Positions 11,561 to 16,611 of a stretch of DNA of 16,611 nt are shown here, piece after piece; position 1 is the stretch's first letter; each line of letters starts with the position of its first letter. The DNA comes from Candidatus Bathyarchaeum sp. (lineage in GTDB: Archaea; Thermoproteota; Bathyarchaeia; Bathyarchaeales; Bathyarchaeaceae): the NCBI GenBank assembly GCA_026014495.1, contig JAOZIF010000092.1, forward strand, positions 1 through 16,611. The letters are read 5' to 3'. Made by a program: the position numbers and the translations under genes. A model generated the notes under the pieces. That model saw only the letters and a program-made list of their open reading frames with translations, searched no databases and was not told where the DNA came from.

Positions 11561-12757
11561 TCAAGTTGTGCGTGCCAGTTTCTTGGGATATGTAATCATC
11601 GTCCAGAACGGATAACCTGAAATTTTCTTTGATATCGACTTAGGTGTTATCGCGTTTGTTGGACAGTAGTGGGCACATGCTAAACAGTGTGCACAATCAG
11701 TGCTGGCAAAGGGTTCGTTTAATCCCGTGATTGTAACTGTGTTGCTTCCTCTGTTAGCAAAGTTGATGACTTTTTGACCTGAGAGGTTAGCGCACGCGCG
11801 AACACATCTTCCACACAGGATACAACGGTTGGGGTCTTTGACAAGAACCTCGTTTGAGTCATCGACAATTTCATCCTTTTTGGGAAGGCTGAAACGGTTT
11901 TCTGTTATTTTGTATCGACGCATCCAGTAGCGTATGTCTCTACTTTGCTGTATCTCATCTCCACATTCGGCGATAATCATCTGCAGAATCGACTTTCTAA
12001 GCTTAGTGATTTCTTCATCTTCGGTTGTGACAATCATTCCTTCTTCTATCTGAGTGCAGCAGGATGGAACTAGACCTCGTTTGCCTTCAATTTTCACTAG
12101 ACACATTCGGCAAGCTCCAATAGAACCTAGACTGGAGTCATAGCATAGATGTGGGATTCGTATCCGGTTAGCAGATAGCTCATCTAGCAGGTTAGCGTCT
12201 TTCTTTACTTCAACAGGCTTGCCATCTACAGTTATGGTAATCTTTTCTGGGTTAGGCTCTTTGTCAGCATCAAAGAATTTTGGATACAAATTGAATTGTT
12301 CCACTAGCATGGTTAAAGTGTAGCCTTCTGGTTCTGGTGCTAGACCGGTAGTTGGTAGAGGCGAAGTTAGGATAGGCCCTTTTTTGTTACTGAAGTTTCC
12401 GGACCCAAATGTTTTCGCAGTTGCTATTACCTTCTTTTTGGGAAACACAGTTTTTACACATTGATAGCCAATTTCGCATGTTAGAAGAATTATGGCTGTA
12501 GATTCGTTGAAGATGTCTTCGTGTGCTGCTTTGTGCTTCTTTGCTAGGTTAATTTGACAAGATTCACTTACAAGTTCCTTTTTGAGAACAGTGTAGCCAT
12601 CTTCTTTGAGCAAATCCTCTAGTGCAGTCATCTTTTCCATTCCTGCGATGCCACAGTGCTTCACACATGTGTCGCAACTCCAGATTACGATTTTATCGTC
12701 GTGGTTCAAGTTTCGTTTAAGTTCATCATACGATAAAGAACGAACAGATATTATCAT
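11561..12757 (-). CDS. Fusion: MetV-N-terminal-like Cys domain plus HydA/NuoG-type N-terminal Fe-S relay ([2Fe-2S] and 2x[4Fe-4S]); no catalytic domain
   Basis: N-terminal half has SCDTCVKHCG...ESC...LTCEIG. C-terminal half has ITVDGKPVEV...PHLCY...GACRMCLV...PSCC ([2Fe-2S]), CILCGRCVRAC and CAHCLACAHYCP. Start placed at ATG 12757 (ATGA overlap, RBS GGTGAGGTG); 398 aa. Confidence 0.8.
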   Translation of the reverse strand: MIISVRSLSYDELKRNLNHDDKIVIWSCDTCVKHCGIAGMEKMTALEDLLKEDGYTVLKKELVSESCQINLAKKHKAAHEDIFNESTAIILLTCEIGYQCVKTVFPKKKVIATAKTFGSGNFSNKKGPILTSPLPTTGLAPEPEGYTLTMLVEQFNLYPKFFDADKEPNPEKITITVDGKPVEVKKDANLLDELSANRIRIPHLCYDSSLGSIGACRMCLVKIEGKRGLVPSCCTQIEEGMIVTTEDEEITKLRKSILQMIIAECGDEIQQSRDIRYWMRRYKITENRFSLPKKDEIVDDSNEVLVKDPNRCILCGRCVRACANLSGQKVINFANRGSNTVTITGLNEPFASTDCAHCLACAHYCPTNAITPKSISKKISGYPFWTMITYPKKLARTT

Positions 12758-13236
12758 GCCAAACACCTCACCTTGATTTTTTCGCCAACAAGTGGCTCTC
12801 CAGTGTTTATCCGATACTCTTTACCCAGTTCTTCTTCATGATTCTTGTAAGGCATAACTACTTTGAAGATTTCTTTGTCAGTGTCAGTCACTACCAAGCC
12901 AATGTCTTCTGTGACCTGCACCACTTTCTTGTCAGCAAAGTTTCGCGTAAAACAGGACCACCCTGCAGAACAAGAAAGAACAATGATTGTGTTAGCGTCC
13001 AAATCAAGCTTTGCTTCTCTAAGTATAGGCTCTGAGCAAGCATACAATACGACAGCTTCGTCAGTGACGTGGTAGCCGTCCCGAATTAGCCTTAAGCCTA
13101 ACTCGTTGAGTTTGTTTAGTCCACCATTTCCACATGTTCTGGCACAAGTATTGCAGCTAATTATAGCAATCTTGTCTTCTTTTTTATCTAGTTTCTTGAT
13201 TATTTCCTCGTAGGGCTCAATTTTCGAAAAGATCAT
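12754..13236 (-). CDS. MetV (MTHFR small subunit) N-terminal-domain-like Cys protein, lacking the MetV C-terminal Cys-rich domain
   Basis: MIFSKIEPYEEII...KIAIISCNTCARTCGNGG...YAC...VLSCSAG matches my recollection of the MetV N-terminal pattern (MI...KP.EEI...GC..CA..C..GG...C...LAC.GAG). Start placed at ATG 13236 (ATGA overlap with the upstream stop); 160 aa. Confidence 0.7.
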   Translation of the reverse strand: MIFSKIEPYEEIIKKLDKKEDKIAIISCNTCARTCGNGGLNKLNELGLRLIRDGYHVTDEAVVLYACSEPILREAKLDLDANTIIVLSCSAGWSCFTRNFADKKVVQVTEDIGLVVTDTDKEIFKVVMPYKNHEEELGKEYRINTGEPLVGEKIKVRCLA

Positions 13237-15044
13237 TGAGTACAACCCTCCTCCAGTTTCACAGATTTTTCACAAATCATTCCAGGCACCTTTTCAATTG
13301 CATCAAACGGACAGGCTTCTGCGCAAGTTCCACATTTGATACATTTAGTTTGGTCTATAGTAGGTGTAGAGCCTTTCTCGCCTGAAATCGCCTGAACAGG
13401 ACAGCTTTTAACACACACCAAACAGCCTTTGCATTTCTCAGAATCCATACAATAGGTCACAAGTGGTTTACAGACTAGTGCTTCACATTTCTTAGAGTTG
13501 ATGTGATCAGCATATTCATTCTCAAAGTATCTGAGCGTTGTTAGTATCGGGTTTGATGCTGTTCTGCCTAGTGCACACAAACAAGCTTGTTGCATTACAT
13601 CGCTGGTTTCTTTTAGTAATTCTATGTCGTCAGCAGTGCCTTCGCCATTAGTGATTCGCTTCAATGTTTCATGCATTAACCGAGTTCCTATCCGCCCAAC
13701 AGAGCATTTACCACAGGACTCAGCAGTTGTGAATGAAAGGAAGAATCGAGCCATATCAACCATACAGTTTGTGTTATCCAGCACTACCATACCGCCAGAA
13801 CCCATAATGGCTCCTGCGCTTTGGAGACTGTCATAATCCATTTGCAAATCAAATCGGTCTGCAGGAACACAGCCACCGCTTGGTCCACCAAGTTGAACTG
13901 CTTTGATGGTTTTGCCTTTTGGAGGTCCTCCGGCTAGGTCATACAACAGCGTTTTAATTGGTGTCCCAATTGGCACTTCGTAAGCACCAGTTCTTGTTAC
14001 AGCACCAGTTACACAGTACATCTTTGTTCCTTTGCTTTTCTCTGTGCCCAAGGCAGCAAATTTTTCCCAGCCTTCAGCCATAATTGTTGCTACATGAGCA
14101 AGCGTCTCAACATTGTTTATGATAGTAGGCATACCCCAAAGACCCTTAACAGCAGGAAACGGAGGTCTCTGAAGTGGATTAGCTCGTTCACCCTGTATTG
14201 CAGCAATCATTGCTGTTTCTTCACCGCAAACGAACGCACCTGCACTCAGGAAAACTTCTATGTCAAAACAATAACCGCTACCAAGAATGTTTCCACCCAA
14301 GAAACCTTTCTCTCTAGCGTCTTCAGCAGCTTTCAGTAGACGTTTAGCAGCTAGGGGTTTTTCTGCACGGACAAATACGAAGCCTTTGTGAGCCCCGATT
14401 GCATGCCCTGCTATGATTAGCCCTTCTAAGATCCGGTGGGGATCAGATTCTGCCAAAAGCCGGTTCATGAATGCTCCGGGGTCACCTTCGTCACAGTTTG
14501 CAATCATGTATTTTACATTGCTTGGCTGTTCTTTGCAGATATTCCATTTTATCCATGTTGGAAAACCTGCGCCTCCTCTGCCTCGTAGGTTTGCTTTTTT
14601 TAATTCGTCTATTGTTTCTTCAGGTTTTCTGTCCAAACATTTTTTGAGCCCTTGATAGCCTCCAACAGCCACATAATCGTCTATTGATTCAGGATTGATT
14701 ATTCCACATTTTCCAGAAATCCATCTAACCTGATTTTTCCAGACATCAAGTTCATCTAAGGATGGAACGTTGCTTCCGTCAGGTTTTCTGAACCTGAATG
14801 CGTAGGCGCTTGAGTAGTCTTCATCTAAGTATTCGCGAATAATTTGTTCAACAATGTCAGGTGTTACATTAGCATAAATTACGGAAGGATAACCTTTCTT
14901 TGTCAGTTCAATCCAAGGGTCAATAAAGTCTAGACCCATACAGCCTACGGGAGTTATCTCTACATCCAAACCCATTAGGTTAACAGTATGGTTTATGCTT
15001 TGTAGAACTTCGTCAGCCCCAGCAGCAATTGTGCAACTAGCCAT
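13233..15044 (-). CDS. HydB/NuoF/HndC-like NAD(H)-binding FMN subunit (bifurcating-type architecture); true N-terminus uncertain
   Basis: Thioredoxin-like N-domain, LRGRGGAGFPT, CDEGDPGAFMNR, GAFVCGEETA, INNVETLA, SLBB domain with GGPSGG, ESCGKC, H..x..KKCEALVC, and a C-terminal 2x[4Fe-4S] domain (CKGCLVCVKSCP, CIKCGTCAEACP). Confidence 0.9.
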   Translation of the reverse strand: MASCTIAAGADEVLQSINHTVNLMGLDVEITPVGCMGLDFIDPWIELTKKGYPSVIYANVTPDIVEQIIREYLDEDYSSAYAFRFRKPDGSNVPSLDELDVWKNQVRWISGKCGIINPESIDDYVAVGGYQGLKKCLDRKPEETIDELKKANLRGRGGAGFPTWIKWNICKEQPSNVKYMIANCDEGDPGAFMNRLLAESDPHRILEGLIIAGHAIGAHKGFVFVRAEKPLAAKRLLKAAEDAREKGFLGGNILGSGYCFDIEVFLSAGAFVCGEETAMIAAIQGERANPLQRPPFPAVKGLWGMPTIINNVETLAHVATIMAEGWEKFAALGTEKSKGTKMYCVTGAVTRTGAYEVPIGTPIKTLLYDLAGGPPKGKTIKAVQLGGPSGGCVPADRFDLQMDYDSLQSAGAIMGSGGMVVLDNTNCMVDMARFFLSFTTAESCGKCSVGRIGTRLMHETLKRITNGEGTADDIELLKETSDVMQQACLCALGRTASNPILTTLRYFENEYADHINSKKCEALVCKPLVTYCMDSEKCKGCLVCVKSCPVQAISGEKGSTPTIDQTKCIKCGTCAEACPFDAIEKVPGMICEKSVKLEEGCTQ

Positions 15045-15079: not shown

Positions 15080-15646
15080 TTATTTCTTCGGGTAAACTAT
15101 CAATTTTCGTTCTGGTTCACTCTCCTGTTTTTTGGCTTTTTCTCGATATTCTGCCAAAATTTTCTTCAGTGCCTTCTGGTCAACATGACCATAAAGTCGC
15201 TGATAATCGCCCGTGCTATCAGTGACCATGACTACAGGCGCTAAACTACAACACCCGAAACACCGTGCAGCCTCAAGACTGAAAACTTTGTCTTTGGTAA
15301 GATGCTGACCATGCTTCAAATCAAGAAGCAACCGCAGGTGCTCGAAATTGTCTGCGTTTCCTTTTGCGTGGCAACCTGTTCCCATGCACACTTGAATCAC
15401 ATACATGCCTGGAGGTTGAAGCCTAAACTGATGATAAAACGTGGCAACACCATAAACTTCACTAAAAGAGACACCCAGATTGACTGCAATCAGTCTCAAA
15501 CTTTCTTTTGGCAAGTATCCATGTCTTTCTTGAACTGCCTGAAGCACCTGAATTAAATCCTTACGAGCAGCACCTTTTGTTATTTTTAAAATGAACTGTT
15601 TCAGTTCAGTCTCTTCTGTAGATGGAAGAACTATAGATTTTTGCAT
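15080..15646 (-). CDS. HydC/NuoE/HndA-like [2Fe-2S] subunit
   Basis: LIQVLQAVQERHGYLP, VYGVATFYHQF, VCMGTGC and RCFGCCSLAPVVMV (CX4C...CX3C). RBS AGGCGG. Confidence 0.92.
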   Translation of the reverse strand: MQKSIVLPSTEETELKQFILKITKGAARKDLIQVLQAVQERHGYLPKESLRLIAVNLGVSFSEVYGVATFYHQFRLQPPGMYVIQVCMGTGCHAKGNADNFEHLRLLLDLKHGQHLTKDKVFSLEAARCFGCCSLAPVVMVTDSTGDYQRLYGHVDQKALKKILAEYREKAKKQESEPERKLIVYPKK

Positions 15647-15672: not shown

Positions 15673-16212
15673 TCACAGGACCCTGAAGGGAGATTTCTCC
15701 TGTTTTTCAAGCAATTTTTTGTAAGTTGTAGCGGTTATGAGCTGGCTTAGATCACTTTTAGATCTAGGAGCAATAGTCACTATCCAACCATCATCATAAG
15801 GACTGTCGTTTATGACATCTGGAGTTTCCATTACTCTCTGGTTTATTTCCACTATTTTGCCGCTGATTGGGGCTATAAGATCAAAAGCAACGTACTCACA
15901 TCGCATCTCGTCAAGGTTTGCACATGGTCTTCCATAGACCGTTCCAAAGACTTCTCCGACTTCAACGTCTTCGCCTACAGTGGTGTTCTTGAAGATTTCT
16001 ACAAGTCCCACTTTTTCTCGTAGATGTTGCTGGGCATAATCGGTTACGCCAATTTTTTGATTGCCTTCAAGAGTGTTTTTTAGCCACATGTGAGTTTTTG
16101 TGTAGTCTCTGTTAGTCTTAACGCAGACCTGTTTTCCCTCGCACTGGACAAGGTAGTCCTTTTGTGCGGTGTTATTCTCGCCTGTTTTTAACATTGATAC
16201 GTTCTTGTACAC
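15673..16212 (-). CDS. Glycine-cleavage-H-like protein lacking the lipoyl lysine (Cys-x7-Cys loop instead)
   Basis: H-protein hallmarks YTKTHMW, IGVTDYAQ, G.EV..GEVFGTV, APISGKIVEIN, PDVINDSPYDDGWI. The canonical VESVKA is replaced by VYGRPCANLDEMRCEYVAF. GTG start at 16212 with RBS GAGGCG. Confidence 0.85.
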   Translation of the reverse strand: MYKNVSMLKTGENNTAQKDYLVQCEGKQVCVKTNRDYTKTHMWLKNTLEGNQKIGVTDYAQQHLREKVGLVEIFKNTTVGEDVEVGEVFGTVYGRPCANLDEMRCEYVAFDLIAPISGKIVEINQRVMETPDVINDSPYDDGWIVTIAPRSKSDLSQLITATTYKKLLEKQEKSPFRVL

Positions 16213-16230: not shown

Positions 16231-16299
16231 TAATGACACATCAGGGCGTAGTATATACATTACGTGATTAAAGTAACAATGTATATATACGTGTCATTA
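16231..16299. promoter_or_regulatory. Divergent promoter with two inverted-repeat pairs between the oxidoreductase operon and the PhoU-like gene
   Basis: TAATGACAC (16231-16239) / GTGTCATTA (16291-16299) are perfect 9-bp arms. TATATACATT (16252-16261) / AATGTATATA (16278-16287) are perfect 10-bp arms containing TATA-like boxes. Confidence 0.55.
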
Positions 16300-16326
16300 C
16301 TGTAAATACTGATAAGAGTGGAAAAC

Positions 16327-16611
16327 ATGGAATCCAGAAAAGTGCAACGCGTCGGATCATCCAGCTTAGCCGTTTCACTTCCTAACGAATGGGTCAAAGA
16401 AGTGGGCTTAAAAAAAGGACAACTAGTCTTCTTCAAAGAAGACGAAACAAACATACTCAAAATAATGACTGCCGAACAAATAGAAAAACAGCCCGATACA
16501 ACAGTTGAATTGAACGGAGATTTCTGTAAAGACCCCAAAATGTTAGGCAGAGCCCTAATGGGAGTCTACTCATTAGGATACGACAGCATCAAAATAGTTT
16601 CATCAAGCAGA
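16327..16611 (+). CDS. AbrB/MazE-domain plus PhoU-family archaeal phosphate-uptake-type regulator (partial, runs off the right edge)
   Basis: MESRKVQRVGSSSLAVSLPNEWVKEVGLKKGQLV is the AbrB-type N-terminus typical of archaeal PhoU regulators, followed by ...LGRALMGVYSLGYDSIKI. 95 codons, open to the edge. Confidence 0.85.
   Translation, partial: MESRKVQRVGSSSLAVSLPNEWVKEVGLKKGQLVFFKEDETNILKIMTAEQIEKQPDTTVELNGDFCKDPKMLGRALMGVYSLGYDSIKIVSSSR

Follow-up and report, generated by a model that had tools for sequence, protein, structure and literature searches.

In a 16,611-nucleotide contig of Candidatus Bathyarchaeum sp. (JAOZIF010000092.1; the whole of this stretch is referred to as the window), we identified a protein, P0001, that belongs to a family with the fold of the glycine cleavage H-protein (GcvH) and no lipoyl lysine. 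H-proteins are a textbook case of a protein whose entire function resides in one lipoylated lysine. The subfamily represented by P0001 has dropped both this lysine and the cavity into which the lipoyl arm docks, yet it stays under strong purifying selection, is conserved as a family, and is encoded in invariant synteny with NuoE and NuoF across three operon types, which ties it to the NADH-flavin core that hydrogenases and formate dehydrogenases of the NAD-linked and electron-bifurcating kinds have in common. We propose, with moderate confidence, that the P0001 family is a non-lipoylated GcvH-fold accessory subunit of this NuoEF core (the BC core of Bfu-type enzymes), to which it would bind and dock. 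The positions of all features in the window are collected in Table 1.

The assignment of P0001 to the GcvH fold rested on both sequence and structure comparisons. Its gene starts with a GTG codon, at a position where the homologs have Met. The protein matched the Pfam family GCV_H (PF01597) over residues 36-170 with an E-value of 4e-24 and a score of 85.3 bits, compared with a gathering cut-off of 22.2. It fell below the cut-offs of both NCBIfam GcvH models, scoring 77.9 vs 115.85 for the equivalog TIGR00527 and 96.9 vs 117 for the subfamily model NF002270. The AlphaFold2 (AF2) model of P0001, calculated from a 41-sequence alignment, had a mean predicted local distance difference test score (pLDDT) of 82.5, with values of 84-85 in the loop discussed below. 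The best structural matches to this model were all H-proteins (Foldseek, ~1e-10), and comparison with the pea H-protein 1dxm_A in VIA gave a Z score of 18.5 and a root-mean-square deviation of 1.8 over 130 residues. Sequence identity to canonical H-proteins was 35-47%, and the T-D-Y-A-Q and P-Y-x-x-G-W motifs were kept between them and P0001 in the alignment. Both ends of the protein differ from canonical H-proteins, which lack the N-terminal extension, predicted to form a beta-hairpin, as well as the SPFRVL tail at the C-terminus. The extension was conserved in the family, and the tail was kept across all subfamilies. The last block of the AF2 model had a pLDDT of 57, with residues 177-179 below 50, and such a combination of conservation and low model confidence is typical of a docking motif, as which the tail may serve. 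Homologs of P0001 are currently annotated as 'glycine cleavage system H protein'.

The region that distinguishes P0001 most clearly from H-proteins is the hairpin that normally presents the lipoyl lysine. A sequence-only reading of this DNA had described about 11 extra residues at this site, containing two cysteines, and a stretch without Lys between K75 and K119. Both descriptions were borne out, and every residue number it gave (C24, C30, H41-M42-W43, K75, C97, C105 and K119) agreed with the translation. In a MAFFT alignment, Lys-bearing H-proteins showed an 11-column gap, with their E-S-V-K-A-x-S sequence facing the insertion, which we refer to as the finger, and residues 76-118 of P0001 contained no Lys. 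Alignments that included the deep branches showed that the lipoyl lysine, which canonically stands at the E-S-V-K-A hairpin tip, is missing in the whole family. Since there is no Lys at the hairpin, the subfamily cannot be lipoylated at the canonical site; what had been concluded for one protein is a family-wide trait in which lysine loss and insertion go together. DSSP analysis of the AF2 model suggested that the finger forms an extra mini-hairpin (strands 97-99 and 104-106, with L100-M103 at the tip), predicted to sit atop the canonical hairpin (strands 88-94 and 109-113). The conserved residues of the finger were Y93, R95, A98, N/D99, L100, D101, M103, E106, A109, F110 and D111.

The changes also reached the cavity in which the lipoyl arm is accommodated. 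In the E. coli H-protein, the Glu of the HEW motif together with the Ser and Tyr of the S-D-x-Y motif are among those that line the cavity for the aminomethyl-lipoyl arm (10.1101/2021.03.28.437365). The change from HEW to HMW, which had been noticed earlier in P0001, was correct and proved to be general, position 42 being M in 47, I in 8 and L in 4 members (n = 60), where canonical H-proteins have E. The Ser and Tyr of the canonical S-D-x-Y motif corresponded to F110 and I113 in P0001. Because the cavity residues E, S and Y were all replaced, the whole lipoyl apparatus has been remodelled, beyond the loss of the lysine.

The genome also contains a separate, Lys-bearing canonical H-protein with the sequence E-S-V-K-A-V-S-D, located on another contig (C46, ~27175-41076; loci L005, L007 and L048). 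Its neighbours are a radical-SAM/BATS protein, a thioredoxin and a pyridine-nucleotide-disulfide oxidoreductase (Pyr_redox_2). The same contig carries the only LplA/LipB-family gene of the genome and a match to the [NiFe]-hydrogenase large subunit. Neither the P-protein (PF02347) nor the T-protein (PF01571) of glycine cleavage was found in the genome, which is 93% complete, so that their absence is no proof. The cluster on C46 looks like a lipoyl-protein system that serves something other than glycine cleavage.

The finger was a property of a large family and not of a single gene. A search of 5.8 billion proteins returned ~60 clusters at 51-90% identity, all of which contained the insertion, followed by ordinary H-proteins (35-40% identity). 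With an exhaustive HMMER search the family grew by more distant members of 35-57% identity. The insertion recurred on at least 25 independent contigs, and since it was found in this many contigs and in ~60 clusters, it is neither chance nor assembly noise. Pairwise ratios of nonsynonymous to synonymous substitution rates (dN/dS) among eight loci ranged from 0.03 to 0.2. The sequence-only reading had allowed that P0001 might be a strain-specific decayed copy, and the conservation of the insertion together with these ratios showed no such decay. The host range of the subfamily comprised Bathyarchaeia plus one Baldrarchaeota metagenome-assembled genome (MAG). Its spread was patchy: it was present in 4/301 sampled genomes of the class, 0/7 other sampled species of the genus and 2/401 genomes of the phylum sample.

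We next considered the genomic neighbourhood of the family. The order GcvH-like gene, NuoE, NuoF was found in every locus with enough flanking sequence; P0076, P0077 and P0095 lie on ~1-kb contigs, where flanking genes are not readable. The earlier claim that the gene heads an operon for an NADH-oxidising Fe-S/flavin enzyme held up in the window, where it is the first of five co-directional genes, lies 26 nt upstream of nuoE on the same strand, and is followed by the sole Complex1_51K gene of the genome, the NuoF-like gene. This six-gene arrangement, consisting of the five genes and a divergent regulator, was found in 16 loci, which include ten GTDB species representatives (Bathyarchaeota, Bathyarchaeia, Bathyarchaeum) and one Baldrarchaeota MAG, and in this clade the subunit after NuoF is MetV-N/HoxU-like. 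A second operon type was associated with P0223 (genome G089; 35% identity) and its relatives. Here the genes encode the GcvH-like protein, a 226-aa membrane protein, HydC, HydB and HydA. This arrangement was found on Bathyarchaeia-type contigs at L031 (G089:C61), L071 and L072, and partially at L065-L069. HydA in these operons is a true [FeFe] hydrogenase of full length, with the small-subunit domain as well as Fe_hyd_lg_C (1.7e-97), and the 226-aa protein between the GcvH-like gene and HydC is a polytopic membrane protein of no known family. The third type was found in an 844-kb metagenome contig (L070, 5893-11848), where the GcvH-like gene, NuoE and NuoF are followed by a 914-aa protein of the formate-dehydrogenase type, whose N-terminus is NuoG-like and which also has molybdopterin-oxidoreductase domains. 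Since NuoE and NuoF are common to three architectures that differ in their third subunit, the constant partner of the GcvH-like protein is the NuoE/NuoF core. The nearest NuoF relatives outside the family, at 61-63% identity, were found in regulator-HoxE-HoxF-HoxU-[NiFe] operons without a GcvH-like gene. With the gene missing there, the GcvH-like protein is an add-on to this type of module.

These observations can be joined in the following mechanism. The lipoyl hairpin has been rebuilt as a longer protein finger, the cavity of the lipoyl arm has been stripped of its signature residues, and the SPFRVL tail and the N-terminal hairpin have been gained. The finger and the tail would then dock the GcvH-like protein onto the NuoEF core, and the docked protein would stabilise, gate or regulate the module, whichever third catalytic subunit is present. 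The cysteines are lineage-variable decorations that would contribute to hydrophobic packing or at most form a clade-specific thiol or metal site, and they do not make up a working group shared by the whole family. A complex prediction for NuoF, NuoE and the GcvH-like protein gave an ipSAE of 0.00 in two runs without controls, and we counted this result neither for nor against binding. If the GcvH-like protein is a fourth subunit, then models of Bfu/HydABC-type enzymes from uncultured archaea leave out a component, and heterologous expression of archaeal hydrogenase or formate dehydrogenase operons may require the GcvH-like gene.

Several points weigh against an accessory subunit. Co-location could equally mean a substrate/carrier relationship or co-regulation. 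In the deep members L008 and L030, 230-310 nt lie between the GcvH-like gene and nuoE, in the deep member L009 a Pyr_redox gene is inserted between the two, and in the L031-type loci the membrane-protein gene stands between the GcvH-like gene and HydC, which is NuoE-like. With such gaps and insertions before nuoE, stoichiometric co-translation is not guaranteed. In most members, too, at least two Cys remain, namely C24 and one or two of the finger, and in the crown clade loss of any of the four is rare; a real thiol or metal function that shifted its position over evolutionary time could lie behind this. Finally, K75 is fairly conserved and might provide an alternative modification site.

The family was compared with several known systems. 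P0001 shares its fold with GcvH and differs from it in the finger, the M, I or L in place of the HEW Glu, the N-terminal hairpin and the SPFRVL tail. The partners of GcvH are the P-, T- and L-proteins, whereas those encoded in the P0001 operon are NuoE and NuoF. LbpA, which belongs to the sHdr pathway of sulfur oxidation, is a GcvH-like protein with a strictly conserved lipoyl lysine and, located towards the N- and the C-terminus, two extra conserved cysteines that GcvH lacks (PMC6067878). The likeness to P0001 is that of a GcvH-like protein with extra Cys that was recruited to a redox system unrelated to glycine. In contrast to LbpA, P0001 has no such Lys, and its Cys, which belong to the N-terminal hairpin and the finger, are not kept strictly. 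Among them the N-terminal C24 is retained in most members, and the C-terminus, ending in SPFRVL, has no Cys. The neighbours differ as well, being an hdr-like cluster for LbpA, and NuoE, NuoF, MetV-N-like and HoxU-like proteins for P0001. In Streptococcus and Staphylococcus, the GcvH-L protein has a lipoylated Lys and its gene accompanies macrodomain and sirtuin genes, and neither trait is applicable to P0001. What the two have in common is that GcvH-L is a stand-alone GcvH paralog outside glycine cleavage, and its structure (PDB 5a35) had a Z score of 12.5 to the P0001 model.

A loose precedent for the proposed arrangement is the N-terminal barrel-sandwich-hybrid domain of RnfC and NqrA, a hybrid motif of the lipoyl/biotinyl type, which has no cofactor and lies beside a NuoF-like (Complex1_51K/SLBB) module. 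The P0001 model matched 8ahx_C with Z 4.5 and 4u9o_A with Z 4.4, weak values that were no better than many generic hybrid-motif matches. The Pfam families RnfC_N and NQRA_N gave weak matches in other GcvH-family proteins and none in P0001. The precedent also differs in that the RnfC/NqrA domain is fused and far smaller than GcvH, whereas P0001 has a gene of its own, which nuoE separates from nuoF. A framework for the operon itself is the BfuABC/HydABC type, in which a constant BC core is combined with a variable A subunit (PMC9304861). In the P0001-type operons, too, the C subunit is NuoE-like and the B subunit is NuoF-like with 2x[4Fe-4S] at its C-terminus, and the place of the A subunit is taken by a hydrogenase, a formate dehydrogenase or a protein with Fe-S domains only, with bifurcation being putative. 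A fourth, GcvH-fold component lies outside the described family, and the terms GcvH, lipoyl and MetV have 0 occurrences in the survey of the Bfu family (PMC9304861). Our literature search found no lysine-less GcvH tied to NuoEF, HydABC or Bfu, within a limited library that does not prove novelty. The family bears on the fields of lipoate proteins and of flavin-based electron bifurcation, and it also provides a rule for annotation, since the label 'glycine cleavage system H protein' is given here even though the genome shows no P- or T-protein genes.

The sequence-only reading had proposed that the Cys-x7-Cys pair of the finger could be a working substitute for the lipoyl arm. This was not supported, since C97 and C105 were not conserved in the orthologs. 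Among 60 members, position 97 was Cys in 49, Y in 7, H in 2, F in 1 and R in 1. Cys at this position was confined to the crown clade (0/~17 deep-branch members), and even there it was replaced by F, H, R or Y in P0042, P0047 and P0048. Position 105 was Cys in 54 of the 60, W in 2, and T, Y and S in one each, while P0051, P0054 and P0095 had no loop Cys altogether. A second pair that had been pointed out, C24 and C30, is present in P0001 and widespread, with C24 in 58/60 and C30 in 55/60, but both were lost in several deep members, and C30 was lost in at least eight members when the deeper branches are counted along with the 60. The loop Cys interchange with Tyr, Trp, Phe and His, which is the behaviour of packing or surface positions, and the exchange with Tyr or Trp in particular speaks for packing over catalysis. 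If the modelled finger has a regular hairpin register, residue 97 would pair with 106 and 98 with 105, and C97 and C105 would thereby lie on opposite faces.

A thiol or metal role that is specific to certain clades may nevertheless exist. If C97 and C105, maybe together with C24 and C30, formed a dithiol/disulfide reduced by NuoEF, a persulfide carrier or a metal/Fe-S site in this clade, then one would point to the near invariance of all four Cys within the crown clade, to the deep members, which often hold the Cys count through a swap (Y97/C107 for the C97/Y107 of P0001), to P0052, P0057 and P0074, which carry C24, C30, C105 and C107, and to C107 as the sole Cys kept by the six members that accompany an [FeFe] hydrogenase or a formate dehydrogenase (6/6). 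The canonical H-proteins in the alignments are without these Cys, and the operon provides a reductant. This reading is nonetheless unlikely given that no loop Cys is universal, that C97 and C30 are lost as described, that the exchange is with Tyr or Trp, and that the predicted register keeps C97 and C105 apart. To our knowledge, C-x5-C and C-x7-C are not standard metal-knuckle spacings. The broader claim that finger cysteines (C97/C105, C105/C107 or C107), perhaps with C24/C30 or across a dimer, replace the lipoyl arm by carrying NuoEF-charged electrons, sulfur or a metal/Fe-S centre seems to us distinctly unlikely. Were such a claim true, the GcvH-like protein would be a dedicated small redox carrier of archaeal Bfu-type enzymes, for example a low-potential partner.

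The GcvH-like protein might instead be a redox or metabolite sensor that acts as a co-regulator with the divergent AbrB-PhoU-type regulator and has no part in the enzyme. In nearly all loci the gene of this regulator directly adjoins the GcvH-like gene, in the window the space between the two contains a perfect inverted repeat, and in L009 the GcvH-like gene stays beside the regulator though split from nuoE. The 417-aa protein P0080 contains segments that weakly resemble RHH_6 (E 0.0013, under the cut-off). If the protein were a co-regulator only, however, one would not expect it in L070, where it occurs with NuoEF and the formate dehydrogenase and where no AbrB-PhoU regulator match was found within 6 kb upstream of it. 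A regulator of this kind is also found in Hox-type operons, which have no GcvH-like gene, and in the window the short same-strand spacing associates the gene with nuoE. We regard a purely regulatory role as quite improbable.

It is very improbable that the protein works as a swinging-arm carrier with its prosthetic group elsewhere, for example on K75 or on a conserved side chain of the finger. K75 was found in 14/16 divergent members and lies within a family-specific 3-residue insertion (F-K-N-T-T context), in the block with the lowest pLDDT of the core (71), and the genome has one LplA/LipB-family enzyme and a radical-SAM/BATS protein. Yet K75 is missing in P0076 and in the whole hydrogenase/formate-dehydrogenase-linked clade, where S or R takes its place, its context is unlike the canonical E/D-x-x-K-A hairpin, the signature residues of the cavity are lost, and the lipoylation genes sit with the canonical H-protein on another contig. 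That P0001 is a decaying or non-functional GcvH paralog carried along in the operon, as the loss of the defining Lys and the patchy distribution might suggest, is effectively refuted by the low dN/dS, by the intact frame in all loci, by the conservation of the insertion and C-terminal tail down to 35% identity and by the position kept across three operon types.

Table 1. Features of the window, with positions counted from its first nucleotide.
Feature	Positions	Strand	Evidence
Lysine-less GcvH-fold protein P0001, 179 aa, first gene of the operon	15673..16212	(-)	Open reading frame and translation, Pfam, AF2, VIA
N-terminal extension, residues 17-35, not in canonical H-proteins, predicted beta-hairpin with C24 and C30	16108..16164	(-)	DSSP strands 20-24, 27-31
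H41-M42-W43, replacing canonical H-E-W	16084..16092	(-)	Alignment
Finger Y93-F110, 11-residue insertion in place of the lipoyl-lysine hairpin, contains C97 and C105	15883..15936	(-)	Alignments, DSSP of model
C-terminal tail K165-L179, ending S-P-F-R-V-L	15676..15720	(-)	Alignments
NuoE/HoxE/HydC-like thioredoxin-like [2Fe-2S] subunit	15080..15646	(-)	PF01257 9e-41
NuoF/HoxF/HydB-like FMN/NADH subunit with C-terminal 2x[4Fe-4S]	13233..15044	(-)	PF01512 4e-43, PF10589 7.5e-29, Fer4 at 533-594
Cys-rich Rossmann-like MetV-N-like protein, 160-163 aa	12754..13245	(-)	Homology to N-terminal half of MetV
401-aa fusion of a second MetV-N-like domain with a HoxU/HydA-N-like [2Fe-2S] + 2x[4Fe-4S] module	11561..12766	(-)	PF13510, Fer4
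AbrB(MazE/SpoVT)-PhoU-type regulator, 5' part, divergent	16318..16611	(+)	PF04014 1.9e-08
Perfect 10-nt inverted repeat TATATACATT / AATGTATATA, 16-nt spacer, divergent promoter region	16252..16287	.	Sequence

The two genes that follow NuoF in the window both encode MetV-N-like domains. The smaller protein had no match in a Pfam search. It contains the invariant cysteines C28, C31, C67 and C89 in a CxxC...C...C pattern, and its AF2 model had a pLDDT of 82. It is homologous to a 215-aa protein encoded adjacent to methylenetetrahydrofolate reductase (MTHFR), whose N-terminal half it matches and whose C-terminal half carries PF12225; such MTHFR-adjacent MetV proteins occur in related genomes. In Foldseek and VIA comparisons the MetV-N-like model had no specific counterpart in the PDB, and the matches were all generic, to Rossmann-like or periplasmic-binding-protein-like structures. 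The 401-aa fusion has no catalytic domain and matched the NCBIfam HoxU model at 4e-43, under the cut-off. The two MetV-N-like domains of the window are paralogous (33% identity, E 3e-16), with four invariant Cys in each, and free-standing relatives of ~130 aa are present elsewhere in the class. MTHFR (MetF) was considered as a general partner and rejected, since PF02219 was not found in the genome and some operons with the GcvH-like gene lack MetV-N-like domains. A possible Rosetta-stone link, in which the MetV-N-like domain would be a DGC domain (PF08859), was likewise discarded at an hhalign probability of 4.8%. A domain search found no Hdr or CCG matches in the window operon. Upstream of the operon, the regulator gene is represented by its 5' part, and the full-length homologs of this regulator carry PhoU. 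The inverted repeat in the divergent promoter region is a candidate operator and/or candidate TATA elements.

Further loci and domain arrangements were observed in the course of the searches. The gene inserted between the GcvH-like gene and nuoE in L009 (8585-9985, (-)) encodes a 466-aa dihydrolipoamide-dehydrogenase-like protein (Pyr_redox_2/Pyr_redox_dim) on the opposite strand, and a similar gene adjoins MetFV in G203 (L035). Directly beyond the regulator gene, L001 (3971-6772) and L009 (5802-6755) carry genes of the tetrahydromethanopterin (H4MPT) pathway (Mpt_N, MTD, FTR), which is not so in the window. A tandem pair of lysine-less GcvH-like genes, with 59% and 45% identity to P0001, is located at a contig end in L012/L045 (G067:C38). 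P0080 contains two lysine-less GcvH-like domains, each following one of the segments with the weak ribbon-helix-helix match. In P0101 (1391 aa), three GcvH domains are fused to an FAD-oxidase, a 4Fe-4S and two CCG (HdrD-like) domains. An ESM Atlas cluster of 148 proteins, with Thorarchaeota as the most frequent source, has a DGC (four-Cys) domain fused to a GcvH domain, and the latter superposes on the P0001 model over residues 16-177.

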